From an uncultured Rhizobiaceae bacterium (GTDB taxonomy: Bacteria > Pseudomonadota > Alphaproteobacteria > Rhizobiales > Aestuariivirgaceae), in NCBI GenBank assembly GCA_964461545.1, contig CAYWVA010000001.1, positions 1 through 43,207 on the forward strand: a DNA stretch of 43,207 bases, in the 5' to 3' direction. The translations under genes and the position numbers were made by a program. The notes under the pieces are model-generated. The model searched no databases, was not told where the DNA came from, and saw only the letters and a program-made list of their open reading frames with translations. Below are positions 2,057-42,266 of the stretch, one piece after another. How positions within the stretch are numbered: the first letter of the stretch is position 1; each line of letters starts with the position of its first letter.

Positions 2057-3661
2057 ATGAGCACGGAGATCAGCGTCGGCGAGGCGATCGTCGAACTGCT
2101 CGAGGCCTATGGCGTCGACACGGTTTTCGGTATTCCCGGCGTGCACAATGTCGAGATGTACCGGGCCTTGCCGCGCTCTAAGATCCGCCACGTCTTGACG
2201 CGCCACGAGCAGGGCGCGGGCTTCATGGCGGACGGCTATGCCCGGGCCACCGGCCGGCCGGGCATTTGCTTCACCATTACCGGCCCGGGGCTCACCAACA
2301 TTCTCACGCCCATGGGTCAAGCGTGGTCGGATTCCGTGCCGATGCTCGTCATCTCCACCGCCCTCGACGTCGCCGACCAGGCCTTCGGTCGCGGCCGCCT
2401 GCATGAGATGCGCGACCAGCGCGGTGCGGCCCGTTGCGTGGTCGAACCGGCCGTCACTGCGAATTCGGGCCACGACGTCCAGGACGCCATGGCTGCGGCG
2501 TTTTCAGGCTTTGCCAGCACACGTCCGCGTCCGGCTTATCTCGAAGTGCCCATCGACGTGCTGAAATCGCCCGCCGCGACAGGCTGGTTACCCAGACTCC
2601 TCGCTAAAGCGCCTCATCCGGCACGCGAGGACGTTGCAAAGGTCGCAGCTCTGTTAGGCGACGCTGAGCGGCCGGTGATGATCGTCGGCGGCGGTGCGCG
2701 CCGGTTGAGCGCTGCGGTCACCGCGATCGCCGAGCGCGCGGGTGCAGTCGTATTCACCACCATCGCGGCCAAGGGCGTCATGCCCGATGACCATCCGTTG
2801 CACGCCGGCGCGGTGCTGCCCAGTGACGCAGCCATCTCGATCATCGAACGGGCCGACGTGGTTCTGGCGGTGGGGACCGAGATTGCCGAAACCGACTTGT
2901 GGCACAAGCACATAACCATGACCGGCGCACTGATCCGCGTCGACCTCGATCCGTCGATGCTGGCGCGGCCTTACCCGGCGAGCCTGCCGATCCTTGCCGA
3001 TGCCAGCGCCACCCTGAATGCAATTATGGCGGCACTGTCGGGACAGGCGGACGGCGTCCAGGGGCTCGCTGCTGCCGACCAGGTGATAGCGCTGCGCCGC
3101 GCCTTGGTGGCTGAAGACGATGAGTTGCGCACCACTCTGCGACGTGTGCTGGAGACCATACGGGAGGGGCTTCCCGAAGAGACCATCGTCGCTTCCGACA
3201 TGACCCAGATTGCTTATGCCGCCAACGAGATCTTCCCCATGAACCGGCCCGGCCAGTGGCTCCATCCGGTCGGGTTCGGTACGCTGGGTTATGCGCTGCC
3301 GGCCGCCATCGGCGCCAAGGCCGGACATTCGGAAGCCCCCGTAGCGGCGCTGATCGGCGACTACGGCTTCCAGTATACAGTAGCCGAGCTTGGTACCGCC
3401 GCTGAGCTCGGCCAAGCTCTGGTCATCCTCTTGTGGAACAACGACTCCCTCGGCCAGATTCGCGACGACATGGTGAGGAAGGGCATTCAACCCACCGCGG
3501 TGACTACCAAGAATCCCGACTTTCAGCTTCTATTCCGGGCCTATGGCTGTTACGCCGAGAAGCCGGCAAGCGTTAAAGAGATCGCTCCGGCAATCGGGCG
3601 CGCACTGGCCGCCGATCGCCCGACCCTGATCGAGTTGACCCCGCGCATGGTCGGCCTGTGA
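2057..3661 (+). CDS. Thiamine-diphosphate-dependent enzyme, acetolactate-synthase-like (resembles the 5-guanidino-2-oxopentanoate decarboxylase family)
   Basis: 534-aa ORF. The N-terminal Pyr domain reads VELLEAYGVDTVFGIPGVHNVEMY...RHEQGAGFMADGYARATGRPG...TGPGLTN. The C-terminal ThDP-binding region reads IGDYGFQYTVAELGTA...LLWNND. GAGG lies upstream of the ATG. Confidence 0.9.
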   Translation: MSTEISVGEAIVELLEAYGVDTVFGIPGVHNVEMYRALPRSKIRHVLTRHEQGAGFMADGYARATGRPGICFTITGPGLTNILTPMGQAWSDSVPMLVISTALDVADQAFGRGRLHEMRDQRGAARCVVEPAVTANSGHDVQDAMAAAFSGFASTRPRPAYLEVPIDVLKSPAATGWLPRLLAKAPHPAREDVAKVAALLGDAERPVMIVGGGARRLSAAVTAIAERAGAVVFTTIAAKGVMPDDHPLHAGAVLPSDAAISIIERADVVLAVGTEIAETDLWHKHITMTGALIRVDLDPSMLARPYPASLPILADASATLNAIMAALSGQADGVQGLAAADQVIALRRALVAEDDELRTTLRRVLETIREGLPEETIVASDMTQIAYAANEIFPMNRPGQWLHPVGFGTLGYALPAAIGAKAGHSEAPVAALIGDYGFQYTVAELGTAAELGQALVILLWNNDSLGQIRDDMVRKGIQPTAVTTKNPDFQLLFRAYGCYAEKPASVKEIAPAIGRALAADRPTLIELTPRMVGL

Positions 3662-24297: not shown

Positions 24298-27200
24298 TCA
24301 ACGAAAATCGCGGGTCTTGGGCATGATGCGCACCTGCCGGGGATGGCGGGCCGGGGGCTCGCGGGCGTCATGACCGGGGCGCGCGATGTGATCGGCGCGC
24401 GCCAGCGGGGGTGACAGAAGCTGGCGATCCTCCATCAGGCGCAACAGCCAATCGGTGCGGTCTTCCAGGGTGTCAGCAACCACATGAATGATGTCTTCGC
24501 TCCGCTGCAGCCGGCCCTTCACCAGCAAAAGACGCGCACCCATGACTGCGGCGCGGAAGCGCTCGAGCACTTGCGGCCACACTACGATGTTGGCGACCGC
24601 GAACTCGTCTTCGAGCGTGATAAACACCACCCCGCTCGAACCTGGGCGCTGGCGCACCAGCACCACGCCGGCGACGGTGATCCGCCGGCCATCCTTGCCG
24701 GCCTTGAGAGCCAGGTTGTCGGTGACCCGGTGCGACCGGCAGATGTCGCGCAGGAACTCCATGGGATGGCCTTTGAGCGACAGCTTCAGGGTCTGATAAT
24801 CGTTCACGACCTCTTCCGATGCCGGCATCGGGGGCAGTGCGACCGGTGCATCAACACCCTGATCGCGAACCTGCGCGTAGGCAAACAGCGGCAGGTCTTG
24901 CGCCTTGCTCAGCGCCTTGGCCTGCCACAGGGCCTGACGACGGCTCAGATTGAGCGAGCCGAACGCATCTGCCCCCGCCAGCTTCTCCATCGCCGCCACC
25001 GCCACGCCGGCCCGGCGCTGCAGGTCGGCGAGGGAGGTGTAACGCCTCTCCCCCTCGTCCCCCTCCCCCTTTTGGAGTCTCTCTCTCCCCCCGCTGGCGG
25101 GGGAAGAGGATAGAGTGAGGGGGGTGGAGGGGCTGGCAAGGTGGTTCGTATCCCTGGCGCCTGAGCCCCTCACCCGATTACGCGCTGCCACGATCGCCTG
25201 GCCTTCCGCCTCGGCAAGCCCTTTGACTTCGCGCAGGCCCAGGCGCACGGCGGGGGCCGCTTTATCGTTCCCCTCCTCCTTGTGGGGAGGGGTCAGGGGA
25301 GGGGGCGCGGGCGCCTCCAGCATCGCATTCCAGTGCGAGACGTTGATGTCCGGGGAGCGCACCTCGACGCCGTGCTCGCGGGCGTCGCGCACAATCTGGG
25401 CGGAGGCATAAAAGCCCATGGGCTGGGCGTTTAGCAGCGCGGCGGCAAACACCGCCGGGAAATGACACTTGAGCCATGCCGAGACATAAACCAGATGGGC
25501 AAAGCTCGCGGCATGGCTTTCGGGGAAGCCATATTCGCCAAACCCCTTGATCTGATCGAAGCAGCGCTGGGCGAATTCCTCCTCGTAGCCGCGCTCGACC
25601 ATGCGTCTTACCATCTTGTCCTCAAGCCGGCCGATGGTGCCGCGCCGCCGAAACGTCGCCATCGCCTTCCTCAGCTCATTGATCTCGCCCGGCGCGAACT
25701 CGGCCGCCACCATGGCAAGCCGCATCGCTTGCTCTTGGAACAGCGGCACGCCCTTGGTCTTGCCGAGCACGGTCTTCAATTCGTCGGGCGGCCCGAAGGC
25801 CGGGTTGGGTGCGGGGTAGTCCTCGGCCTCCAGCCCCTGGCGGCGGCGCAGATACGGATGCACCATGTCGCCCTGGATGGGGCCGGGACGCACGATCGCC
25901 ACCTCGATCACCAGGTCGTAGAAGCATCGGGGCTTGAGCCGCGGCAGCATGTTCATCTGGGCCCGGCTCTCAACCTGGAAGACGCCGACCGAATCGGCCT
26001 TGCACAGCATGTCGTAGACGCCTCGATCCTCGCGCGGCACGGTGGCGAGCGAATATTTCACGCCATACCACCCCTCGATCAGCTCGAAGCTTTTCCGGAT
26101 GCAGGTGAGCATGCCCAGCCCCAGCACATCCACTTTCAAGATGCCGAGCGCGTCGATATCGTCCTTGTCCCACTCGATCACCGTGCGGGCTTCCATGGCG
26201 GCGTTGCCGATCGGCACGGTCTCATCGAGCCGGCCTTTGGTCAGGACGAAACCGCCGACATGCTGGGACAGATGGCGCGGGAAGCCGGTGATCTCGTCGG
26301 CGAACTCGAGCACCCGGGCGAGCAGCGGATCGGCTGCATCGAGGCCGACCTCCTTCAGACGCTGTGGCGTCATTTCCTCGTTCATGCGGCCCCACACGAT
26401 GCCGGCGAGCGCGGCCGTCACGTCCTCCGACAGGCCCATGGCCTTGCCGACATCGCGCACCGCCGAGCGGCCGCGATAGGTGATCACCGTGGCCGCCAGG
26501 CCGGCGCGCTCGCGGCCGTAGCGCTCATAGATGTACTGGATGACCTCCTCGCGCCGCTCGTGCTCGAAATCGACATCGATGTCGGGCGGCTCCTTGCGCT
26601 CCTCGGAGACGAAGCGCTCGAACAGGAGGTCGATCTGGACGGGATCGACCGCGGTGATGCCGAGGCAGTAGCACACCGCGGAGTTGGCCGCCGAGCCGCG
26701 GCCCTGGCACAGGATCGGGGTGTCGCGCGAACGCGCAAAGCGCACGATGTCGTGGACGGTGAGGAAATAGGGGGCATAGCCGAGCTTTTCGATGAGCTTG
26801 AGTTCCCGCGTCACCGCGGTCCGGACCTTGTCGGGCAGCCCTTGGCCGTAGCATTCGCCAGCGCCCTGCCAGGTCAGCGCCTCAAGGTGGCCTTGGGCGC
26901 TGGTGCCCGCCGGCACCGGCTCCTCCGGATATTCGTATTTGAGCTCATCGAGCGAAAAGCGGCAGGCCTCGGCGATCTCCACGGTACGTTCCACCGCCGC
27001 CTCATGGCCGCGGAAGAGGCGGGCCATCTCGGATGCCGGCTTCAGATGGCGCTCGGCATTGGCCTCGAGCCGAAAGCCCGCTTGCGAAATCGTGCAGGTG
27101 TTGCGGATGCAGGTGACGACGTCGTGCAGCGGCTTGCGGTCGGGGTGATGGAAGAGCACGGCATTGGTGGCGATGAGCGGCGCCGAATAGCGCACCGCCA

Positions 27201-27861
27201 GCGCTGCCAGGCGGTTGAGACGGGCCCGGTCGCGGCCGCGATAGAGCATGTGGGCGACGAGATGGAGGGCTGCGCCGTCCAGCGTCCGGCGGACGTGGGT
27301 GAGGGTCGTCTCGAAGGCCTCGCCTGGCCAGGTCTCGGGTGGCACGACGGCCAGGATCAGCCCTTCGGCATGGGCGACGACATCGGCCAGCGTCAGGTGG
27401 CACTCGCCTTTTTCGACTCGGCGCTGACCTAGGGTGAGGAGGCGGCACAGCCGGCCGTATGCCGCCCGGTCGGTGGGCCAGGCGAGAAGGGAGAGGTCAC
27501 TGGCGGACTTCTTGCCGCTGGTCCCCCCACCCCCGACCCCGCCCCACGAGGGGGAGGGGGGCTTTTCCGGCATCTCCGTTCTGCTCCCTCCCCCCTTGTA
27601 GGGAAGGGCCGGGGTGGGGGGTAGGCCACGCTCCAAGCCATCCGCGTCACTCAAATCCAGCCTCGCCCCCACCACGAGGCGCAGTCCTGTTTCCTTGGCC
27701 TGCACGTGCGCCCGCACGATGCCGGCGAGCGAGTTGTGGTCGGTGACGGCTAAGGCATTGAGCCCCAGATGCTTGGCCTGGACCACGAGCTCTTCCGGGT
27801 GCGACGCACCGCGCAGGAAAGAGAAATTGCTGGTGACCTGAAGCTCGGCGTACTCGGTCAT
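24298..27861 (-). CDS. dnaE2: Error-prone DNA polymerase III alpha-like subunit DnaE2 (ImuC)
   Basis: Start at ATG 27861 gives MTEYAELQVTSNFSFLRGASHPEELV (PHP domain). The core reads ...GVFQVESRAQM...IVRPGPIQGDMVHPYLRRR... and the C-terminus is HPRQVRIMPKTRDFR. It lies 8 nt downstream of imuB and carries three in-frame repeat insertions. Confidence 0.95.
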   Translation of the reverse strand: MTEYAELQVTSNFSFLRGASHPEELVVQAKHLGLNALAVTDHNSLAGIVRAHVQAKETGLRLVVGARLDLSDADGLERGLPPTPALPYKGGGSRTEMPEKPPSPSWGGVGGGGTSGKKSASDLSLLAWPTDRAAYGRLCRLLTLGQRRVEKGECHLTLADVVAHAEGLILAVVPPETWPGEAFETTLTHVRRTLDGAALHLVAHMLYRGRDRARLNRLAALAVRYSAPLIATNAVLFHHPDRKPLHDVVTCIRNTCTISQAGFRLEANAERHLKPASEMARLFRGHEAAVERTVEIAEACRFSLDELKYEYPEEPVPAGTSAQGHLEALTWQGAGECYGQGLPDKVRTAVTRELKLIEKLGYAPYFLTVHDIVRFARSRDTPILCQGRGSAANSAVCYCLGITAVDPVQIDLLFERFVSEERKEPPDIDVDFEHERREEVIQYIYERYGRERAGLAATVITYRGRSAVRDVGKAMGLSEDVTAALAGIVWGRMNEEMTPQRLKEVGLDAADPLLARVLEFADEITGFPRHLSQHVGGFVLTKGRLDETVPIGNAAMEARTVIEWDKDDIDALGILKVDVLGLGMLTCIRKSFELIEGWYGVKYSLATVPREDRGVYDMLCKADSVGVFQVESRAQMNMLPRLKPRCFYDLVIEVAIVRPGPIQGDMVHPYLRRRQGLEAEDYPAPNPAFGPPDELKTVLGKTKGVPLFQEQAMRLAMVAAEFAPGEINELRKAMATFRRRGTIGRLEDKMVRRMVERGYEEEFAQRCFDQIKGFGEYGFPESHAASFAHLVYVSAWLKCHFPAVFAAALLNAQPMGFYASAQIVRDAREHGVEVRSPDINVSHWNAMLEAPAPPPLTPPHKEEGNDKAAPAVRLGLREVKGLAEAEGQAIVAARNRVRGSGARDTNHLASPSTPLTLSSSPASGGRERLQKGEGDEGERRYTSLADLQRRAGVAVAAMEKLAGADAFGSLNLSRRQALWQAKALSKAQDLPLFAYAQVRDQGVDAPVALPPMPASEEVVNDYQTLKLSLKGHPMEFLRDICRSHRVTDNLALKAGKDGRRITVAGVVLVRQRPGSSGVVFITLEDEFAVANIVVWPQVLERFRAAVMGARLLLVKGRLQRSEDIIHVVADTLEDRTDWLLRLMEDRQLLSPPLARADHIARPGHDAREPPARHPRQVRIMPKTRDFR
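25045..25133. repeat. G/C-homopolymer palindromic repeat, divergent composite copy, inside dnaE2
   Basis: C-arm CCTCTCCCCCTCGTCCCCCTCCCCC, inner hairpin CCCCCG-ctgg-CGGGGG, G-arm GAGGGGGGTGGAGGGGC. It is read through as SPSTPLTLSSSPASGGRERLQKGEGDEGE. Confidence 0.6.
25270..25305. repeat. G/C-homopolymer palindromic repeat, half unit, inside dnaE2
   Basis: CCCCTCCTCC-TTGT-GGGGAGGGGTCAGGGGAGGGGG: a short C-arm, TTGT loop and long G-arm, as in the right half of the full copies. It encodes PPPLTPPHKEEG. Confidence 0.7.
27523..27621. repeat. G/C-homopolymer nested-palindromic repeat, full ~99-bp copy, inside dnaE2
   Basis: CCCCCCACCCCCGACCCCGCCCC-ACGA-GGGGGAGGGGGG, a 22-nt spacer, then CTCCCTCCCCCC-TTGT-AGGGAAGGGCCGGGGTGGGGGG. 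It encodes PPTPALPYKGGGSRTEMPEKPPSPSWGGVGGGG, interrupting the PHP-domain region. Confidence 0.8.
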
Positions 27862-27869
27862 GGCGGCCT

Positions 27870-29552
27870 TCAGGCGAACAGGCCGTGGATGAACCAGGCC
27901 GGTTGCTTTTCCTCGCCATACAGGCCCTCGCGGAACAGCCAGTAGCGTCGGCCGGCATGGTCCTCGATGACATAGTAGTCGCGGGTGCCACCCGTGCCAT
28001 CGCGCCACCATTCGGGCGCGATGCGCTCAGGGCCCTCGGCGCGCACCACTTGGCGCGCCACCCGGCGCCAGGTGAAGCGGACCGGCGGCCCATCGGGAAC
28101 CGCGGCGATGGCGACCACCGGTTCGGGACGGTCAAGCAGCAGGATCGGGCGGAGCCCCCCTCCCCCAACCCTTCCCCCCTCGTGGGGGAGGGTTAGGGTG
28201 GGGGGTAACGCAATCTCCGCCCGCTCCGGCACATGGCTCTCTGCGGCCTCGAGCCTGGCAAGCGCCAGGCGCTCATAGCGGTTGAGAATGCGGTCGGCGA
28301 GTTCGACCAGAGACGAGCCGGGGGCAATCCGGCCGGCGAGAAAATCGGCCTGGGCCGGCGCCACGGCTGCGGTTTCGACCGCTTCCATGGTCCCGGCCTC
28401 GATGCCGTAGCCGAGATCGAGGTCCTCGAGCTTGAACACGATAAGCCGTGCCAGATGGCTGGGATCATGACAGCCCTGGGCCAGACCGACCGGGATGACG
28501 GCCCGGGAGCCGTCGACCCGGTAGAGTTTGACGAGAAGCCGCAGGGCGCTGCGGCCGGCACTCTCGAGCCGGGCGCAGAAGGCATGCGCCAGGTGTTCGA
28601 TGAGGACCTTCACGCCCTCAGCGCTCACCAGCGGCTCGATGACGGCCTCGCGCACCGCAAGGACGGGCGGAGAGTTGAGCGGGGCAATCGGCGCCTCGGC
28701 ACGCCCCAAGGCCTGATCGAGCTTCACCATGAGCGAGCTTGTCAGATCGTTGCGGAAGCGTCGGGCGAGACTTACCCGCGGCAGGTCATGGAGCTGGCCG
28801 ATGCGCTTGAGGCCCAGCTGCCGCAAAGTCTGGCAGGTCTCGAGCTCAAGCCCCAACGCTTCGACCGGCAGGGTCTCGAGTGCGCGGTACTCCTCGCCAG
28901 GGGCAACGATGGGGAAGGGGGAGGGCGGAGCTTCCGAGAAGCCCTCCTCACCTCCCCCAGAAAGGGGGAGGTCGGCCCGTAGGGCCGGATGGGGGTTGAC
29001 CGGGCGCCGGCGTTCCTTGGGGGAAGCCCCGTCAATCCCCTCCCTGACCCTCCCCTTTTCTAGGGGAGGGAATGCGCAGTACCGCGCCAGGGCCCAGGCG
29101 GCGGCCGCGGTGCCGGCCAGGGCGAGGTTTATGGTGAAGCCGAGGCGGCGGAACTTTGCGGCCATATCGGCCAGCAGCGCCGCCTCGCCACCGAACAGAT
29201 GCGCGATTCCGGTGACATCGAGCACCATGCCATCGGGTGGATCGGGGGCGATGAAAGGGCTCCAGCGCTCCGACCAACGCATGAGCTTCAACAGCATGGC
29301 GGCGTCCTTGTCGGGCTCATGCAGGCGTGAGACGAGGTCCGGCACCCGGGCGCGGGCATCGGCGAAGCGCTCGCCTGTCTTCAGCCCACGGGCCCGGGCG
29401 GCCACGCTACAGGCGGCGAGCCGTAGACCGTGGGCGCCCGCCTGCACCAGCACCAGCGGCTGGCTCGTCGGGATCATGTCCTGATGAGACCTGCCGCGGA
29501 TCAACCGTTCGATCGCAAACTGCGGCAGCCAGAGCGAAACAATGCGTCGCAT
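27870..29552 (-). CDS. imuB: Y-family-polymerase-like protein ImuB
   Basis: Start at ATG 29552 gives the canonical MRRIVSLWLPQFAIERL. The C-terminus is ...YWLFREGLYGEEKQPAWFIHGLFA. It lies between imuA and dnaE2 and carries three or more in-frame repeat insertions. Confidence 0.9.
   Translation of the reverse strand: MRRIVSLWLPQFAIERLIRGRSHQDMIPTSQPLVLVQAGAHGLRLAACSVAARARGLKTGERFADARARVPDLVSRLHEPDKDAAMLLKLMRWSERWSPFIAPDPPDGMVLDVTGIAHLFGGEAALLADMAAKFRRLGFTINLALAGTAAAAWALARYCAFPPLEKGRVREGIDGASPKERRRPVNPHPALRADLPLSGGGEEGFSEAPPSPFPIVAPGEEYRALETLPVEALGLELETCQTLRQLGLKRIGQLHDLPRVSLARRFRNDLTSSLMVKLDQALGRAEAPIAPLNSPPVLAVREAVIEPLVSAEGVKVLIEHLAHAFCARLESAGRSALRLLVKLYRVDGSRAVIPVGLAQGCHDPSHLARLIVFKLEDLDLGYGIEAGTMEAVETAAVAPAQADFLAGRIAPGSSLVELADRILNRYERLALARLEAAESHVPERAEIALPPTLTLPHEGGRVGGGGLRPILLLDRPEPVVAIAAVPDGPPVRFTWRRVARQVVRAEGPERIAPEWWRDGTGGTRDYYVIEDHAGRRYWLFREGLYGEEKQPAWFIHGLFA
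28155..28205. repeat. G/C-homopolymer palindromic repeat, single long hairpin, inside imuB
   Basis: CCCCCCTCCCCCAACCCTTCCCCCC-TCGT-GGGGGAGGGTTAGGGTGGGGGG, with imperfect ~20-bp arms. It encodes LTLPHEGGRVGGGG. Confidence 0.8.
28911..28995. repeat. G/C-homopolymer palindromic repeat, composite copy, inside imuB
   Basis: GGGGAAGGGGGAGGGCG ... GCCCTCCTCACCTCCCCC-agaaa-GGGGGAGGTCGGCCCGTAGGGCCGGATGGGGG. It has a perfect 8-bp CCTCCCCC/GGGGGAGG stem and shares GGGCCGG.TGGGGG with the 27601 and 39146 arms. Confidence 0.7.
29037..29070. repeat. G/C-homopolymer palindromic repeat, half unit, inside imuB
   Basis: CCCCTCCCTGACCCTCCCC-ttttcta-GGGGAGGG: a long C-arm and short G-arm, with a perfect 8-bp stem. 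It encodes PLEKGRVREG. Confidence 0.7.
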
Positions 29553-30351
29553 AAGACCATTCCACTGACCACTGGCCGGGCCTGCCGCCACGACAGCGGG
29601 CCAGGCGTACATCCCAGACCGGCGGGCCTGGTGCTTTTTCATCAAAGGACGGCGGCACCGACGCATTTGCGGCGACGATCCAGCGGGTCCGCGCCGCCAT
29701 GCCGCCTTGGAGAGGGGCGGGGAAGAGGAGGAGGGCGGGGGTCTTGCCCTGGCTCGCCGCCAGCATGAGACGCCGGACCGCGGTGAAGCCCAAGCCCGGG
29801 TCGGCATCGGCAATGACGCCGGCAAGGCCCGTGGACTTGAGGGCCTCTTCCACCGTCCACAGTACCGCTTGCGGCTTGCTCAAGGTAACGGTGAGGAGCT
29901 GGTGGCGCGGCAGCCCCAGCGCCTCAAGCCCATGGCCATGGAGCCGTCCCCACTCACGGCTCTCCAACGACAGGCGGCACCATAGGAGGGGGCGCTCATC
30001 TTCAGGAAGGCTTTGCAACCGCCGCACGGCAAGCGCTGCGGCAAATCCCACCGCGGCGGGCATGTCTCCATAGCCGGCGGGCGCGATCTCGTGGACGGCC
30101 GCCGTCGCCAAGCCGCCGCCCTCTAAGCCTCGGGGGAGATGACAATCGATCTCGACCAAGCCGAAGGTCCAGGCCTGCGCCGCAGCCGGTACGCTCCGTT
30201 CGCCCGGGGTGATCAGGGCTGGTGCCGCCTCGATGCCGGCGATGCGGGCACGCAGCCGCTCCAGAAGCAGGCTGCGAGTTCCCTTGCCTGGCACTTTGCT
30301 GGCGGAGGGAACGCCTGCCCCTTGCGCCGCATATGAAGCAGTGCAAGTCAT
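29407..30351 (-). CDS. imuA: SOS-response cell-division-inhibitor-like / RecA-fold protein ImuA
   Basis: First gene of the imuA-imuB-dnaE2 cassette. LLERLRARIAGIE... and ...RCRGGRPGQWSVEW are typical ImuA ends. The start was placed at ATG 30351 because the LexA box lies inside the longer track ORF. The annotated stop (29407) lies 146 nt inside imuB in another frame. Confidence 0.8.
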   Translation of the reverse strand: MTCTASYAAQGAGVPSASKVPGKGTRSLLLERLRARIAGIEAAPALITPGERSVPAAAQAWTFGLVEIDCHLPRGLEGGGLATAAVHEIAPAGYGDMPAAVGFAAALAVRRLQSLPEDERPLLWCRLSLESREWGRLHGHGLEALGLPRHQLLTVTLSKPQAVLWTVEEALKSTGLAGVIADADPGLGFTAVRRLMLAASQGKTPALLLFPAPLQGGMAARTRWIVAANASVPPSFDEKAPGPPVWDVRLARCRGGRPGQWSVEWSYATHCFALAAAVCDRTVDPRQVSSGHDPDEPAAGAGAGGRPRSTARRL

Positions 30352-30366
30352 GATCGGAATCCATTT

Positions 30367-30381
30367 GTTCATGTTTTGTTC
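30367..30381. promoter_or_regulatory. LexA (SOS) box, GTTC-N7-GTTC
   Basis: Exact GTTCatgttttGTTC (GAAC-N7-GAAC on the gene strand), 16-30 nt upstream of the imuA ATG. This is the expected position and form for alphaproteobacterial imuA operons. Confidence 0.8.
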
Positions 30382-30523
30382 TAATGGGGCCATCTCGTTC
30401 CGTCAAGTGTCTGTAGCGGCACCATCCAGCAGCTCGACTGCCGAGACGGCACGATCCCTGCCCCTTTTTTGCCGCGCATTGACTTTAGCGTCATTCCTCA
30501 GGGCTGGCCGATTCGCCGGTTGC

Positions 30524-37467: not shown

Positions 37468-38802
37468 TCAACTTGGCGTCCCGAACGCGCGGCGTTCGAG
37501 GGCCGGCAGCCGCATCATGAGCGTCGCCGTGCGCACTGCCAAGAACAGATCGAGCGCCAGCCACAGCCCATGATTGCCAAACACCGGCGTGAAAACCCAC
37601 CACGCGACGATGAACGCAGAAAAGCTCACAATCATCATGTTGCGCATGTCGCGTGTCTGGGTTGCGCCGGTGAAGATACCGTCGAGCTGGAAACACGCCA
37701 CGCCGAGCAACGGCGACACTGCAACCCAAGGCAAATACTGCCGCGCCATTACCCGGACCTCAGGCGAGACGGACAGGACATCGATCATCAGTGGACCGAC
37801 AAGCACGATCGCCAGCACAAGTGAAAGGCTAAGCGCGCCCGCCCACAGGCTCGAAATCTTGACCGCTTGTCGGTACATGGCCCGCATTCGCCGCCCCACT
37901 GCCTGGCCGACAAGGGCCTCTGCGGCGTGCGCAAACCCGTCAATCAGGTAGGACGAAAACGTGAAGAAGTGCATGAGAACGGCATTTGCGGCCAGCGTCA
38001 CGTCGCCCATCCGAGCTGCCTGGGCGGTAAACCAGAAGAAGGTCAGGATAAGCAGCAGAGAGCGCACCATGATGTCGAAATTGACCGACACCATGCGCCT
38101 GAGCCGATCCCGGTCGAGAACGCGGGCAAGCTCGAAGGTGGCCTGCACGCGCTTGAGCTCGAAGGCGACCAGCACCAGCCCGAGCAGCGCCGCCGAGACC
38201 TCGGCAATCAAGGTGCCGAGTGCAATGCCGTCCGCCGTCATGCCGAGGCCGAGCACGAAGAGGGCGTCCAGCGCCATATTGACCCCGTTCAGAAACAGCG
38301 CGATCACCAGCGCTGCCCGCGTCCGGCCGATACCGACGAACCAACCGACGAGCGCGTAGGTCATGAGCGTGAACGGCGCCGACCAGATGCGGATGCTGAA
38401 ATAGATCGCCGCCTCATGCTCTACGTCCTCCGACGCCTGGACCAAGTGGAAGACAATCGAGCCGACGACCGGGCTCAAGGCAATCAGGGCGAGACCCACG
38501 GCGGCCGCAAGGAGCAGGGCCCGGGCCAGCACCGCTGCCAGCTCAGCGGCATCGGCCATTCCATAGGCCTGTGCCGCAAGCCCGCCGGTGCCCATACGCA
38601 GGAAGCCGAACCCCCAGTACAGAAAGCTGAAGACGAGCGCGCCGATTGCCACTGCGCCGATGTAATGGGGCTCCGGCAGCCGGCCGATCACTGCGGTATC
38701 GACGATGCCAAGCAAGGGCTGGGAGACATTCGCCAGCATGATCGGCATAGCAATGGCCAGCACGCGGCGGTGAGAAACCTCGGTTTGGAAGGGCTGGGAC
38801 AT
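37468..38802 (-). CDS. MATE-family efflux transporter (DinF-like)
   Basis: 444 aa and 12 TM segments. The N-terminus is HRRVLAIAMPIMLANVSQPLLGIVDTAVIGRL. Its stop directly abuts the pyrD stop. Confidence 0.88.
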   Translation of the reverse strand: MSQPFQTEVSHRRVLAIAMPIMLANVSQPLLGIVDTAVIGRLPEPHYIGAVAIGALVFSFLYWGFGFLRMGTGGLAAQAYGMADAAELAAVLARALLLAAAVGLALIALSPVVGSIVFHLVQASEDVEHEAAIYFSIRIWSAPFTLMTYALVGWFVGIGRTRAALVIALFLNGVNMALDALFVLGLGMTADGIALGTLIAEVSAALLGLVLVAFELKRVQATFELARVLDRDRLRRMVSVNFDIMVRSLLLILTFFWFTAQAARMGDVTLAANAVLMHFFTFSSYLIDGFAHAAEALVGQAVGRRMRAMYRQAVKISSLWAGALSLSLVLAIVLVGPLMIDVLSVSPEVRVMARQYLPWVAVSPLLGVACFQLDGIFTGATQTRDMRNMMIVSFSAFIVAWWVFTPVFGNHGLWLALDLFLAVRTATLMMRLPALERRAFGTPS

Positions 38803-38878
38803 GACGGTACGACCGTTAGGCCACGGCTGCGATCATCGGGTCAAGCGCGCCTACGGCCGGTTGGCCTATAACGGCGCG

Positions 38879-41479
38879 ATGAGCCACTTGCTGCCGCCCC
38901 GATTCGAGCGATGGTTCGCCGCCCGCGGCTGGCGGCCGCGACCGCACCAGCTGGAAGTGGCGGCAGAAAGCGCCGCCGGGCGCTCGGTTCTGCTGATCGC
39001 CCCGACCGGTGGGGGCAAGACGCTCGCCGGGTTCATGCCGAGCCTCATAGATCTGGCGGAGGGGTTCCCTACCCCCAGCCCGGCACCACGAAGGGGAGAG
39101 GAAGAAAAGGTGCCGAGCCTTGCTCCCTCCCCCCTTGTGGAGAAGGGCCGGGGTGGGGCGCCTGTAGCCAGATCGAGGCGCAGAAATGCCGGACTCCATA
39201 CCCTCTACATCTCACCGCTCAAGGCGTTGGCGGTCGACATTGCCCGCAACCTCGAAGCGCCGGTGGTCGAGATGGGGCTCGACATCGCAGTGGAGACCCG
39301 CACCGGCGACACGCCGCAGTCCAAGCGTGCCCGCCAGAAAAGCGCGCCGCCCGACATCCTGATCACCACGCCCGAGCAGATCGCCCTGCTCATTGCCGAT
39401 CCGCTCGCCGCGCGACTGTTTCAGGATTTGAAGGCAGTGATCGTCGACGAACTGCATGCTTTGGCACCGTCCAAGCGCGGGGCCCTTCTGGCGCTCGGCC
39501 TTGCCCGCATCGGCGTAATGGCTCCGCAAGCGGTGCGGATCGGTCTGTCGGCGACCGTCGCCGATCCCGAAGCACTCGCCGCCTGGCTGGTACCTCAGGG
39601 TCCGGGCGCCGCCGAAGCACGCGCTAACATCGTCGCCGGTGCGGCTGGTGCGGCACCAGATATCGCCATTTTGAACTCCGGCCAACGGGTGCCCTGGGCC
39701 GGCCACTCGGCCCGTCATGCGGTGAGCGAGATCTATGACGCGATCCGGCAGGCGGGCATGGCGCTCGTCTTCGTCAACACCCGTTCCCAAGCCGAGGTGT
39801 TGTTCCAGGAGCTTTGGCACGCTAACGACGACGCCCTGCCGATTGCCCTCCATCACGGCTCGCTCGACACCGCCCGGCGGCGCAAGGTCGAGGCGGCGAT
39901 GGCGGCGGGTCGGCTGCGCGCCGTCGTGTGCACCTCAACGCTCGATCTCGGAATCGACTGGGGCAATGTCGATCTGGTCATCAATGTCGGGGCACCCAAG
40001 GGCTCAAGCCGCATCCTGCAGCGCATCGGCCGCGCCAACCACCGGCTTGACGAGCCTTCGCGCGCACTCCTGGTTCCCGCCAACCGGTTTGAGGTTCTGG
40101 AATGCGAAGCCGCCCGGGCGGCGGCCGCTGACGGCGCCCAGGACACCGAGCCCGCCGCCGAATTGAAGCGCGACGTGCTCGCCCAGCACGTTCTTGCCAT
40201 TGCCTGCGCCGGGCCGTTCCACCCCGACCGGTTGTACGACGAGGTCCGCAGCGCCTGGCCCTACCGTCGACTCGCCCGTGACGACTTCGACCAGACTGTG
40301 TCGTTCGTCGCCACCGGAGGCTACGCTCTCAGGACCTACGAGCGCTATGCCAAGCTGAAGCCGTTGCCAGATGGGCGGCTGCGGCTAGCCCATCCCCGGT
40401 TCGCGCAGCGCTACCGCTTGAACGTCGGGACGATCGTCGAATCGGAGATGGTGAAAGTCCGTTTGGTCGGCGCTAGGCAGCGCGCCGGGCGGCGGGTGCT
40501 GTCGGGCGGCCGCGTGCTGGGCGAGGTCGAGGAGTGGTTCATTGAACAGCTGTCCCCCGGCGATACGTTTGTGTTTGCCGGCGAGGTGCTGCGGTTTGAA
40601 GGCCTCGGCGACCTTGATGCCCTGACGAGCCGGACGCGCGCAACCGATCCCATGGTTCCCTCCTACATGGGCGGCAAGTTCCCTCTGTCGACCTACCTCG
40701 CTGCCCGGGTGCGCGCCATTCTCGCCGACGAACGTCAATGGCTCTCCCTGCCTAACCAGGTTCGGGACTGGCTGTACATGCAGCGCTGGAAGTCGCTTGT
40801 GCCACGCGCCGACGAGATGCTGGTCGAGACCTTCCCTCGCGGCCGCAAACACTACCTTGCATGCTACCCGTTCGAGGGCCGGCTGGCGCACCAGACGCTC
40901 GGCATGTTGCTCACCCGACGCCTTGAGCGTCTGGGCGCACAGCCGATGGGCTTCGCCGCCTCCGATTATGCGCTCTCCATATGGGGCCTCGGTGACCTGT
41001 CGCGCCTCGTCACGACCGGCGCCTTGAGCCTCGCAAGCCTGTTCGACGAGGACATGCTGGGCGATGATCTCGAGGCATGGCTTGCCGAATCAAACCTTAT
41101 GAAGCGGGCCTTCAGGACCTGCGCCATCATCGCCGGGCTCATCGAACGGCGTAGCCTTGGCAAGGAAAAGACCGGCCGACAGCTCACCGTCTCCTCCGAC
41201 CTCATCTATGACGTGCTCAGAGCCCACGAGCCCGATCATGTGCTGCTCAAGGCCGCCTGGGACGACGCCGCGGCCGGTCTCATCGATATCCACCGCCTGG
41301 CTCGGCTGCTCGCCCGCATTAAGGGACGCATTGTGCACCGGGCACTTGAGCAGGTCTCGCCGCTGGCAGTTCCAGTCATGCTTGAGATCGGTCGCGAACC
41401 GGTTTATGGCGAGGCCGATGACGCCCTCCTCAAGGAAGCCGCCGACGCTCTCATCGAGGAGGCCATGCGGCTTGTCTGA
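38879..41479 (+). CDS. lhr: Ligase-associated DNA-damage-response DEXH-box helicase (Lhr-like)
   Basis: Start at ATG 38879 (MSHLLPPRFERWFAARGWRPRPHQ). Motif I is APTGGGKT, then LYISPLKALAVDI, DELH, LSATV, FVNTRSQAE, HHGSL, TSTLDLGIDWG and QRIGRANHR. It is followed by pdeM and carries one in-frame repeat between motifs I and Ia. Confidence 0.92.
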   Translation: MSHLLPPRFERWFAARGWRPRPHQLEVAAESAAGRSVLLIAPTGGGKTLAGFMPSLIDLAEGFPTPSPAPRRGEEEKVPSLAPSPLVEKGRGGAPVARSRRRNAGLHTLYISPLKALAVDIARNLEAPVVEMGLDIAVETRTGDTPQSKRARQKSAPPDILITTPEQIALLIADPLAARLFQDLKAVIVDELHALAPSKRGALLALGLARIGVMAPQAVRIGLSATVADPEALAAWLVPQGPGAAEARANIVAGAAGAAPDIAILNSGQRVPWAGHSARHAVSEIYDAIRQAGMALVFVNTRSQAEVLFQELWHANDDALPIALHHGSLDTARRRKVEAAMAAGRLRAVVCTSTLDLGIDWGNVDLVINVGAPKGSSRILQRIGRANHRLDEPSRALLVPANRFEVLECEAARAAAADGAQDTEPAAELKRDVLAQHVLAIACAGPFHPDRLYDEVRSAWPYRRLARDDFDQTVSFVATGGYALRTYERYAKLKPLPDGRLRLAHPRFAQRYRLNVGTIVESEMVKVRLVGARQRAGRRVLSGGRVLGEVEEWFIEQLSPGDTFVFAGEVLRFEGLGDLDALTSRTRATDPMVPSYMGGKFPLSTYLAARVRAILADERQWLSLPNQVRDWLYMQRWKSLVPRADEMLVETFPRGRKHYLACYPFEGRLAHQTLGMLLTRRLERLGAQPMGFAASDYALSIWGLGDLSRLVTTGALSLASLFDEDMLGDDLEAWLAESNLMKRAFRTCAIIAGLIERRSLGKEKTGRQLTVSSDLIYDVLRAHEPDHVLLKAAWDDAAAGLIDIHRLARLLARIKGRIVHRALEQVSPLAVPVMLEIGREPVYGEADDALLKEAADALIEEAMRLV
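39067..39158. repeat. G/C-homopolymer nested-palindromic repeat, full ~92-bp copy, inside lhr
   Basis: CCCTACCCCCAGCCCGGCACC-ACGA-AGGGGAGAGG, a 21-nt spacer, then CTCCCTCCCCCC-TTGT-GGAGAAGGGCCGGGGTGGGG. It is colinear with the dnaE2 copy at 27523 and encodes FPTPSPAPRRGEEEKVPSLAPSPLVEKGRGG. Confidence 0.8.
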
Positions 41480-41489
41480 GCCCGTCAGT

Positions 41490-41591
41490 CCCCCCACCCG
41501 CGACCCCTCCCCCCGAGGCGAAGGGGAGCAGCATGCGCCGGTGCCCATCGCTCCCTCCCCCCCAACATGGGAGGGTCGGGGAGGTGGCGGG
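41490..41591. repeat. G/C-homopolymer nested-palindromic repeat, full ~102-bp copy, filling the lhr-pdeM spacer
   Basis: CCCCCCACCCGCGACCCCTCCCCCC-gaggcga-AGGGGAG, a 22-nt spacer, then CTCCCTCCCCCCC-aacat-GGGAGGGTCGGGGAGGTGGCGGG. It begins 11 nt after the lhr stop and ends 27 nt before the pdeM ATG. Confidence 0.8.
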
Positions 41592-41618
41592 ACGGCACCA
41601 ACCATCCGGCTCGCCGCC

Positions 41619-42266
41619 ATGGACCTGGTGCCGGATCTGACCGGCGCCCTCTACATGCCGGACGACCGGACCTTGATCGCCGCCGACCTGCACTTCGAGA
41701 AGGGCTCGAGTCGCCGGGCAAACGGCGTCCATCTGCCGCCCTATGATACCCGTTCGACACTCACACTGCTCGCTGATGCAGTGGCGCGTTGGCGGCCCCA
41801 ACGGCTGGTTCTGCTCGGCGACAGTTTCCATGACGAGCGGGGACCGCAGCGCCTCGATGCTGCTGACGCGGCGGGCATCGACGCTCTCGGCCAAGCTACG
41901 GAGATCATCTGGATCGCTGGCAATCACGATCCGGTGCTCGACGCTGATCTCCCCGGCACGGTCGCGCACGAGATGTGGCTCGGGCCACTGGTGTTGCGAC
42001 ACGAGCCGTGCCCCGGAGCCGTCAACGAAATCGCCGGCCATCTGCATCCCGTGGCGGCAGTGCAGCGGCGCGGGCGCAAATTGCGCCGCCGGTGCTATGC
42101 CGGCGATGACGAGCGCCTGATCCTGCCGGCCTTCGGCGCCTATGCCGGAGGCCTGAGCGTGCTAGCCCAGCCGTTTGCGCCGCTGTTCTACGGGCGCAGC
42201 TTTACTGCCTGGCTCATCGGTCGCAATGCCATCCATCGCGTCCCGGCAACCGCCCTGCTGGCGTGA
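41619..42266 (+). CDS. pdeM: Ligase-associated DNA-damage-response metallophosphoesterase PdeM
   Basis: LIAADLHFEKGSS, VLLGDSFHD, IAGNHD and GHLHP are metallophosphoesterase motifs. It lies directly downstream of lhr. The start is the ATG at 41619, with an in-frame GTG at 41541 inside the repeat as the only upstream alternative after the lhr stop. Confidence 0.85.
   Translation: MDLVPDLTGALYMPDDRTLIAADLHFEKGSSRRANGVHLPPYDTRSTLTLLADAVARWRPQRLVLLGDSFHDERGPQRLDAADAAGIDALGQATEIIWIAGNHDPVLDADLPGTVAHEMWLGPLVLRHEPCPGAVNEIAGHLHPVAAVQRRGRKLRRRCYAGDDERLILPAFGAYAGGLSVLAQPFAPLFYGRSFTAWLIGRNAIHRVPATALLA

Follow-up and report, generated by a model that had tools for sequence, protein, structure and literature searches.

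How do the genes of a mutagenic DNA-damage response come to hold short palindromic repeats within their reading frames, and why there? The question is raised by a contig of an uncultured Rhizobiaceae bacterium, placed by GTDB in the Aestuariivirgaceae (GenBank assembly GCA_964461545.1, contig CAYWVA010000001.1, positions 1 to 43,207; this whole 43,207-nt stretch is referred to below as the window), the minus strand of which carries an imuA-imuB-dnaE2 cassette. Repeat units built from runs of C and G lie within dnaE2 and imuB, and again in and just downstream of lhr. By their sequence these units are diverged and degenerate copies of the BoxC/PIT/TMECO triplex motif, an element previously described as intergenic and found here in frame within genes. 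The explanation preferred here, to which a probability of roughly 60% is attached, is that they are selfish DNA, prone to fold into structures, and that permissive loops in LexA-repressed genes tolerate them.

Repeat units within dnaE2, imuB and lhr

The dnaE2 gene (24298-27861, minus strand), encoding an error-prone DNA polymerase of 1187 aa, holds three insertions. Site 1 (27520-27621) is a 102-nt inverted pair of units at aa 80-114, in a beta-hairpin loop of the PHP domain; site 2 (25267-25305) is a single unit at aa 853-865, in a beta-hairpin turn adjoining a helix-hairpin-helix (HhH) motif; and site 3 (25044-25178), the most degenerate copy, is a 135-nt composite of nested C/G hairpins at aa 896-939. 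Next to it, imuB (27870-29552, minus strand), the product of which is a Y-family-like mutasome subunit of 560 aa with an IMS domain, has two variable blocks: site A (28920-29078; aa 159-211), a palm-domain loop with units at about 28942-28975 and 29036-29072, and site B (28155-28205; aa 450-466), a 51-nt perfect palindrome comprising both long arms (-45.8 kcal/mol) in the linker after the little finger. On the plus strand, lhr (38801-41479; a ligase-associated DNA-damage-response DEXH helicase by Pfam and the names of its homologues, with a likely start at 38879 from N-terminal alignment) is interrupted between helicase motifs I and Ia by an in-frame inverted pair (39065-39175), and a further inverted pair (41490-41591) begins about 10 nt past its stop codon, in the spacer to the downstream gene pdeM (41595-42266). 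Most sites therefore lie inside open reading frames (ORFs), three in dnaE2, two in imuB and one in lhr, the lhr-pdeM spacer pair being intergenic.

A hidden Markov model (HMM) of the unit, built from 81 units of other genomes and none from the window, gives matches with E<10 in the window exclusively within dnaE2, imuB, lhr or the lhr-pdeM spacer. The strongest fall at 27584-27623 in dnaE2 site 1 (E=6e-11), 39123-39158 in lhr (E=2e-9), 28171-28207 in imuB site B (E=6e-8) and 25271-25305 at dnaE2 site 2 (E=7.5e-4), with weaker matches at 28950, 41551, 27523, 29048, 25081 and 39075; these include 27523-27558 in dnaE2 site 1 (E=0.08), a weak match in dnaE2 site 3 (at 25081), two in imuB site A (E=0.012 and 1.5) and one in the spacer pair (E=0.03). 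A scan blind to the family, seeking a C-arm, a short loop and a G-arm, found five strict hairpins, all in 25081-29072, where shuffled sequence gave 0.7. Relaxing that scan added two hairpins at 27528-27609, two in lhr (39072-39147) and two past the lhr stop codon (41501-41585), with a relaxed total below that of the shuffles and a few matches elsewhere in the window, unrelated to the family. Runs of five or more G or C are scarce across the window (87 against 206 ± 12 in mononucleotide shuffles) and concentrate at 25-29 kb, a general depletion that makes the cluster all the more striking.

A preliminary description, made from the DNA letters and their translations, had placed six units in dnaE2 and imuB; all are present with the sequence described, and its observation that dnaE2 is unusually long holds (1187 aa against 1101-1122 aa in the closest orthologues). 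Two extents change: the unit given as 25045-25133 is really the 135-nt block of dnaE2 site 3, and the two imuB units given between 28911 and 29070 are both part of the single variable block of site A. The further claim that the rest of the window has no copies outside DNA-damage genes stands for genic copies, every one of which lies in three (dnaE2, imuB and lhr) of the window's 40 or so genes, but one of the copies assigned to lhr is the intergenic pair of the lhr-pdeM spacer. Read-through is likewise as first described, since ORF translations run through every genic copy with neither a stop nor a frameshift. The peptides that the inserts encode are rich in Pro, Gly and Ser (18% Pro, 17% Gly), and none of the six frames of the unit consensus contains a stop codon.

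A diverged BoxC-type family

The units have the same three-block architecture, loops and inverted pairs as the elements known as BoxC, PIT or TMECO (Bachellier; Hoyne & Maher 2000; Holder et al. 2015). A BoxC unit of about 40 nt consists of a C-stem of 9 nt, a short loop, a G-stem complementary to the C-stem, a loop of 3 nt and a mirror G-stem, the C-stem and the two mirror-image G-stems forming a purine-motif intrastrand triplex in vitro, as demonstrated for the E. coli sequence by circular dichroism (CD) and nuclear magnetic resonance (NMR) (Holder et al. 2015; PMC4666352). The same study counted 3610 copies across 262 proteobacterial genomes, its table giving 17-50 copies per genome for most Bradyrhizobium, Rhodopseudomonas and Methylobacterium genomes; E. 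coli K-12 has 23, all intergenic and five as inverted pairs, with no mobility genes associated and with second loops that read TTA (type A) or CCG (type B) (PMC4666352).

Set against the published pattern, CCCTCNCCC-N3-6-GGGNGAGGG-N3-GGGNGAGGG with one stem mismatch allowed (PMC4666352), the window has ten places with at most five mismatches (0.35 expected from shuffles) and six with at most three (0 expected), all of them in dnaE2, imuB, lhr or the lhr-pdeM spacer. One copy has a single mismatch, five have 2-3 and four have 4-5: imuB site B matches with 1-2 mismatches on both strands, dnaE2 site 2 with three, imuB site A with four (at 29036-29070) and the spacer pair with four on both strands. 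It is these 1-5 mismatches that mark the window copies as degenerate members; among the matches listed from other genomes, gathered with a 16-mer seed, 81 of 99 units have at most one. The second loop reads TTA in imuB site B and CCG in dnaE2 site 1 and lhr, and inverted pairs occur at dnaE2 site 1, in lhr and in the spacer. The window units and the published element are also alike in having tens of copies per genome, no associated transposase, local instability by insertion and deletion, and deletions of the 'palindrome effect' kind, by which pairs drop their inner parts and retain the hairpin (PMC4666352); the palindrome of imuB site B fits this effect and is a pair, of the kind that orthologues have there, collapsed by loss of its inner arms and spacer.

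Differences remain: the E. coli K-12 copies are all intergenic whereas those of the window are mostly in frame within genes, the window stems are poly-C/poly-G whereas E. coli stems have CT and GA at the N positions, and the window copies, with their 1-5 mismatches, are more degenerate than the BoxC pattern. The idea that the units belong to a new GC-rich repeat family must nevertheless be given up, since they fit the published pattern. Rfam at permissive thresholds returned no family, only spurious microRNA-precursor matches on the hairpins, and the searchable literature held nothing relevant on the unit sequence itself.

An inverted pair of about 100 nt folds into one hairpin of about 45 bp, at -77.6 kcal/mol for dnaE2 site 1 (z = -4.2) and -65.4 kcal/mol for lhr (z = -4.4). 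As a single strand a unit can form a hairpin and, by analogy with the E. coli sequence, possibly a purine-motif intrastrand triplex; the long G-arm is conserved beyond what a hairpin requires because of the mirror G-stem. The four G-tracts of a unit also match the G-quadruplex (G4) motif, and units account for 10 of the 12 such motifs in the window, although the total is not above chance (9 ± 2.8 in shuffles) and only its location is unusual.

When the 16-mer CTCCCTCCCCCCTTGT from the window was scanned against one genome per species, at least 132 copies were returned in at least 119 stretches, which confirms the early suggestion that the units form a repeat family. The listed matches come mainly from Bradyrhizobium, Rhodoplanes, Xanthobacteraceae and uncultured Alphaproteobacteria, with others in Competibacteraceae and in Planctomycetota, Chloroflexi and Elusimicrobia contigs, the last three beyond the Proteobacteria reported by Holder et al. 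Outside the query, the sequence 3' of the seed is nearly invariant (GGGGGAGGG-YT-GGGG-W-GRGGGG-T); conservation drops sharply at both ends, with a T after the last G-run in 66% of units and nothing conserved thereafter. Units cluster (73 of 99 non-seed HMM matches lie within 300 nt of another unit, among the matches listed), and the copies in other genomes are mostly intergenic. About ten of the at least 132 listed are securely in frame in identified proteins: two each in dnaE2, lhr, oxoprolinase and HrpB, together with GltB and a class II ribonucleotide reductase, the dnaE2 copies occupying yet other sites, in lineages whose DnaE2 is about 50% identical to that of the window. The two oxoprolinase genomes (L003, L049) share one in-frame position, as do the two HrpB genomes (L059, L061), which shows recurrent occupation of permissive loops beyond DNA repair. 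Further listed copies are found at a DNA ligase gene, inside or upstream of it, and upstream of uvrB. As an in-frame host in Bradyrhizobium uvrB itself was rejected, the units lying 330-480 nt upstream of the real start; the inverted pairs there (L015:1827-1996, L054:3563-3771) sit in a spurious long ORF. Among the matches listed, inverted pairs in other genomes show no preference for lengths in multiples of three, and counts of pair orientation are confounded by double matches on palindromes. Phage carriage received no support, a 25-mer being present in only 6 of 2.9 million viral contigs.

Several contexts of the family in other genomes deserve record. In three loci (L013, L027 and L112, Planctomycetota metagenome-assembled genome) and in L035 (Elusimicrobia) the hairpin part is repeated head to tail in tandem, its period being 30-46 nt, in contrast to the alphaproteobacterial singlets and pairs. 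Inverted pairs at L050:5781-5900, L055 and L097 (uncultured proteobacterium A14_bin-2326) are bounded by GTAAGCGTTCA...TGAACGGTTAC, termini that resemble IS66-family ends; this suggests that in some genomes the unit pair may travel within a MITE (miniature inverted-repeat transposable element). Copies in six Bradyrhizobium loci (L004, L019, L029, L039, L094, L109) have a common 5' extension, GTGAGGTGAGCACGC..., and the unit is thus part of a larger repeat in that genus.

Insertion into length-variable loops

Whether the segments were inserted or inherited can be judged from filled and empty sites. In the closest dnaE2 orthologue loci (L120-L122, about 85% nucleotide identity), site 1 is a clean 102-nt gap in all three and site 3 a gap of 135 nt in L120 and L121 and of 120 nt in L122, while site 2, a half-unit in the window, holds a full pair in L120 and another hairpin in L122 and is nearly empty in L121. 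The lhr insert is missing from two orthologues at 84% protein identity (P0243, P0244), and in two Bradyrhizobium species this lhr loop is occupied by the same family. On these comparisons, units entered dnaE2, imuB and lhr as blocks in multiples of three and were partly or wholly deleted again in some lineages. The empty sites at about 85% identity bear out the proposal of lineage-specific in-frame insertions, and an assembly artefact is ruled out, because the same inserts or variants of them recur in independent assemblies.

ImuB is more varied. AAWALARY precedes site A, and ESHVPERAE precedes the linker that is site B; close orthologues have the same DNA in other frames (PSPTRGEG versus LPHKGGG), P0123-P0128 have full unit pairs at site B, and some orthologues have other repeat families in the same loops (LDPSLRWGDG). 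In more distant orthologues site A is without an insert and site B is a short linker only. Because the same DNA is read in different frames and unrelated families occupy the same loops, the element is one of the DNA and not a protein motif. The unrelated families were seen in ImuB (P0123, P0127, P0128), in DnaE2 (P0064, P0013, P0022, P0043) and at L063:1131-4832, with peptides such as SCQRRLASNRD...LDPSLRWGDG, RWREATDEG...LIRPSGTFPQGGK and PSPLAGEGGGRSPPDEG; two more DnaE2 insertion sites, one in the finger domain and one past VVMPP, occur in L106 and L063.

In many orthologues the three DnaE2 loops and the ImuB linker hold some extra residues, and distant ones do have segments there, as would be expected if the Pro/Gly-rich segments were ancestral low-complexity linkers whose DNA only looks palindromic. 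Those segments, however, are in other frames or of other families and are interleaved with empty sites, so that insertion is not refuted. With clean empty sites in the nearest orthologues, DNA that fits a multi-copy and mostly intergenic family of hundreds of genomes, and the same DNA in different reading frames, ancestral linkers are hardly credible.

The host proteins vary in length at the same places. Exactly three internal blocks vary in length across 119 DnaE2 orthologues, and these are the three insert sites: in window numbering, aa ~72-120 (at least 10 aa in 36 of the 119, longest 66 aa), ~851-869 (37 of 119, longest 58 aa) and ~889-953 (at least 10 aa in all 119, median 22 aa, longest 88 aa). 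The two main internal variable blocks of ImuB (118 orthologues) are sites A and B, site A reaching 10 aa in only 17 of 118, and Lhr has one internal variable block, where the window insert is the largest of 120 orthologues. An AlphaFold2 model of DnaE2 from the 119-sequence alignment reached a mean predicted local distance difference test (pLDDT) of 74.5 and a predicted template-modelling score (pTM) of 0.71; a first model from 17 sequences (pLDDT 44) was too poor and was discarded. In the model retained, the three inserts have pLDDT 27-37 and form coil between confident strands or helices. The internal segments of low confidence (pLDDT <50) include aa 77-119, between strands 66-72 and 123-129, aa 855-865, and aa 902-932, between helices 884-896 and 944-951.

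On a profile alignment with E. coli Pol III alpha (5fku), site 1 falls in the loop of the PHP domain that follows residue 72, site 2 at the turn between HVNDD and GEIVY, and site 3 at the ARNKGG loop beside the segment GIGAIKGVG, which we take to be the HhH motif. Aligned to Pol IV (7yll), ImuB has site A directly upstream of the region that aligns, which runs from the KPDG-strand segment, and site B after the little finger. The structural mapping that had been proposed as a check thus agrees with a loop location: the DnaE2 inserts are predicted to lie in disordered loops, and in all the host proteins the inserts, as far as alignments indicate, fall only in length-variable loops or linkers.

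Insertion has not ended the working life of the polymerase gene. The dN/dS ratio (non-synonymous to synonymous substitution rates) of dnaE2 is about 0.16 at dS of about 0.5 against three orthologues, and the DIDVDF motif, taken here to be catalytic, is invariant among orthologues; dnaE2 is therefore still under purifying selection. Its product has the full Pol III alpha set of Pfam domains (PHP, DNA_pol3_alpha, finger, HHH_6 and OB) and orthologues at 80% identity by BLASTP (86-87% over the alignment), while an exact-protein lookup found no record identical to the window DnaE2. The imuB product begins MRRIVSLW, its start codon having been checked, and a protein identical to it (P0121) is annotated ImuB.

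Tolerance, biased insertion or regulation

Upstream of the cassette lies an exact match, GTTCATGTTTTGTTC (30367-30381, plus strand), to GTTC-N7-GTTC, the established alphaproteobacterial LexA site, and on the strength of which SOS control of imuA-imuB-dnaE2 is proposed. The first cassette gene, imuA (29407-30393, minus strand), has a weak NCBIfam ImuA_translesion match below the cutoff and no repeat unit in the HMM search. The box falls within the longest imuA ORF (ATG at 30393), and the true start is therefore probably a downstream ATG. Elsewhere in the window, three exact GTTC-N7-GTTC boxes lie within 72 nt (1545-1616), between an ORF (1079-1546) and a thiamine pyrophosphate (TPP)-enzyme gene (2057-3661) resembling 5-guanidino-2-oxopentanoate decarboxylase; the flanking ORFs have no NCBIfam match, and the triple box could be a strong SOS operator of an unannotated gene.

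Under the preferred explanation, the elements would be selfish or neutral passengers of which selection purges nearly all coding DNA, and they would be tolerated in the variable loops of proteins that are modular, LexA-repressed and presumably rarely expressed. Existing copies would attract or seed more copies, which could account for several units at one site. That unrelated repeat families occupy the same loops speaks for permissive sites more than for a link peculiar to this family.

A number of observations weigh against tolerance as a sufficient account, and the first concern concentration. Over a further 88 kb around imuB-dnaE2 and lhr, taken from related metagenomic genomes (L123, L125, L126, L133, L134), the HMM matches with E<1 are all in imuB or dnaE2, as are eight of nine hairpins from the family-blind scan, so that across 131 kb of the clade the family is almost confined to imuB, dnaE2 and lhr. 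The density of HMM matches in imuB-dnaE2, about 65 per 100 kb, is some 20 times that of about 3 per 100 kb for independent extras in 863 kb of family-carrying loci. This may exceed even a purely intergenic density, and tolerance alone may not suffice to explain it. Gene-by-gene copy counts are not phylogenetically independent, however, and this inflates them; in the nearest 120 DnaE2 and 120 ImuB clusters about 10% have unit-derived peptides, always at the same hot spots. The suspected concentration in DNA-damage genes is thus upheld by the window and by related loci, but the family is not exclusive to translesion-synthesis or SOS genes and most copies across genomes are intergenic: the bias is real without being exclusive to repair genes.

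The remaining observations come from dnaE2 site 1, where the pair has an identical junction in the window, L123 and L126, lineages interleaved with the empty L120, L121, L122 and L125. The filled lineages each have a near-perfect hairpin of -78 to -91 kcal/mol, with arms diverged by some 15-20% (by eye) and spacers much more so, and the inner loops covary within pairs (GCAA/TTGC, ACGA/TCGT, ACAA/TCGT); a shared half-unit is 97% identical though dnaE2 dS is 0.48. Identical junctions, covariation and half-unit identity could reflect targeting, gene conversion or constraint instead of neutrality, and the pattern at site 1 fits repeated insertion of symmetric masters, hairpin-driven self-conversion or structural constraint.

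One way to read both sets of observations is that the elements preferentially arise or insert in DNA-damage genes, the concentration reflecting mechanism and not tolerance alone, either through single-stranded DNA exposed by strong transcription of SOS genes during damage or through template switching or gap repair at stalled forks. The roughly 20-fold density, the near-confinement over 131 kb and the junction shared by three interleaved lineages all speak for it, as do the four of about ten secure in-frame copies that lie in dnaE2 or lhr (among the at least 132 listed) and the copies in or upstream of the DNA ligase gene and upstream of uvrB. E. coli elements, moreover, stall DNA polymerase in vitro and are linked to raised local insertion-deletion (indel) instability (PMC4666352), and Di Nocera et al. 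argued that repeats do not occur in repair genes by chance (PMC3733652). Yet in-frame copies are also found in oxoprolinase, HrpB, GltB and ribonucleotide reductase, unrelated repeat families share the same loops, the HMM matches have no consistent orientation to transcription, filled and empty junctions reveal neither a target motif nor a target-site duplication, and the counts are inflated by shared descent. Biased insertion is accordingly considered unlikely.

The same hairpins may be looked at as functional. Hairpin, triplex or G4 structures might be retained in cis to tune the mutasome and Lhr, whether by attenuating transcription or translation of the mutagenic polymerases, by acting as a structure-dependent sensor, or through peptides that alter protein activity. 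Three diverged lineages keep strong hairpins with covarying halves at dnaE2 codons 80-114, conservation is higher in arms than in spacers, the half-unit is 97% identical at dS 0.48, and G4-type motifs fall mostly (10 of 12) in units. Close relatives without inserts nevertheless have an intact gene; position, copy number and reading frame vary between lineages; recognisable units occur in only about 10% of orthologue clusters; and arm covariation would equally be produced by mobile palindromes and hairpin-driven conversion. E. coli elements, for their part, have neither promoter nor terminator activity and form no stable triplex in vivo (PMC4666352). A regulatory role is thus very doubtful. Tolerance, biased insertion and structural regulation are not mutually exclusive.

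The means by which units move bears on all three. No mobilising enzyme was found in the sampled loci, so that 'mobile element' is a term derived from presence and absence only, and this too counts against the preferred explanation of selfish DNA. The outer arms of pairs are inverted, like the terminal inverted repeats of MITEs, but no target-site duplication is visible where filled and empty junctions are compared. As in repetitive extragenic palindromes (REPs), the units are short imperfect palindromes in many copies, with inverted doublets that form one long hairpin; no GTAG or CGTC tag is present at the unit end. Searches by tblastn with an E. coli RAYT query gave no match in the window and one in the 119 loci, in L005. 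That RAYT-like gene (2957-3487, within L005:2860-3710; 49% identical to the query) has GTAG-type REPs, GGGCGATTTTGCGCAC, on both sides and has the look of a classical REPtron, with no relation to the BoxC-type pair 2 kb away; as the sole RAYT is flanked by an unrelated GTAG REP, RAYT mobilisation gains no support. ORFs between paired units in L094 were considered as a transposase and proved to be an ordinary gene.

In-frame palindromes have precedents. The classical ones are the Rickettsia palindromic elements (RPEs), which Ogata et al. reportedly described in 2000; these are said to be AT-rich, 100-150 bp long, restricted to Rickettsia and present in many gene classes. They resemble the window units as selfish palindromes in frame within functional genes, thought to be tolerated at the surfaces of host proteins, but they have no triplex-type architecture, and homology is implausible on composition, G/C homopolymers against AT-rich sequence. 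REPINs and their RAYTs (Bertels & Rainey 2011) are similar in that two inverted units and a spacer form one long hairpin and singlets look like remnants; they differ in that the spacers of the present family are poorly conserved between copies and no cognate RAYT was found in the sampled loci.

Closest in kind are the GTAG/CGTC REPs which, according to Di Nocera, De Gregorio & Rocco (2013; PMC3733652), are found in frame in several phyla and are over-represented in DNA synthesis and repair genes. The hosts named there include dnaE2 (O. terrae aa 934-971, S. wittichii aa 166-246), uvrABCD, recBCD, ligase and helicases, and flexible loops are offered as a neutral explanation although chance is doubted (PMC3733652). 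Like the window units, these REPs are short palindromes, single or dimeric, read in frame, and the O. terrae dnaE2 repeat lies at a residue position close to window sites 2 and 3; they are a separate family, the window units having neither tag. The novelty first claimed, of a GC-rich analogue of RPEs in repair genes, therefore falls away, as other REP families have already been described there, dnaE2 included, and with Rickettsia RPEs this kind of finding is already known. New are the involvement of BoxC/TMECO, a family so far described as intergenic, imuB and ligase-associated lhr as repeat hosts, neither being among the hosts named in the passages of Di Nocera et al. (PMC3733652), and the mapping of filled and empty alleles and of the host loops; their study made no orthologous empty/filled-site comparison or loop mapping (PMC3733652).

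Should the enrichment of BoxC-type elements in imuB-dnaE2 and lhr-pdeM prove mechanistic, beyond tolerance alone, which is distinctly unlikely, it would mean either that damage-linked single-stranded DNA and repair synthesis let the damage response write elements into its own genes, or that stable structures are kept by concerted evolution of their arms as attenuators of mutagenic polymerases. The locus joins the BoxC and triplex-motif literature with an unexplained excess of palindromic repeats in DNA-repair genes, and it offers filled and empty alleles at single-nucleotide resolution, host loops placed on a structural model and signs of concerted arm evolution. It thereby makes tolerance, targeting and the tuning of mutagenic polymerases testable against one another, and it implies that Pro/Gly-rich extras in annotations of Hyphomicrobiales DnaE2, ImuB and Lhr are to be read as repeat-derived, not as new domains.

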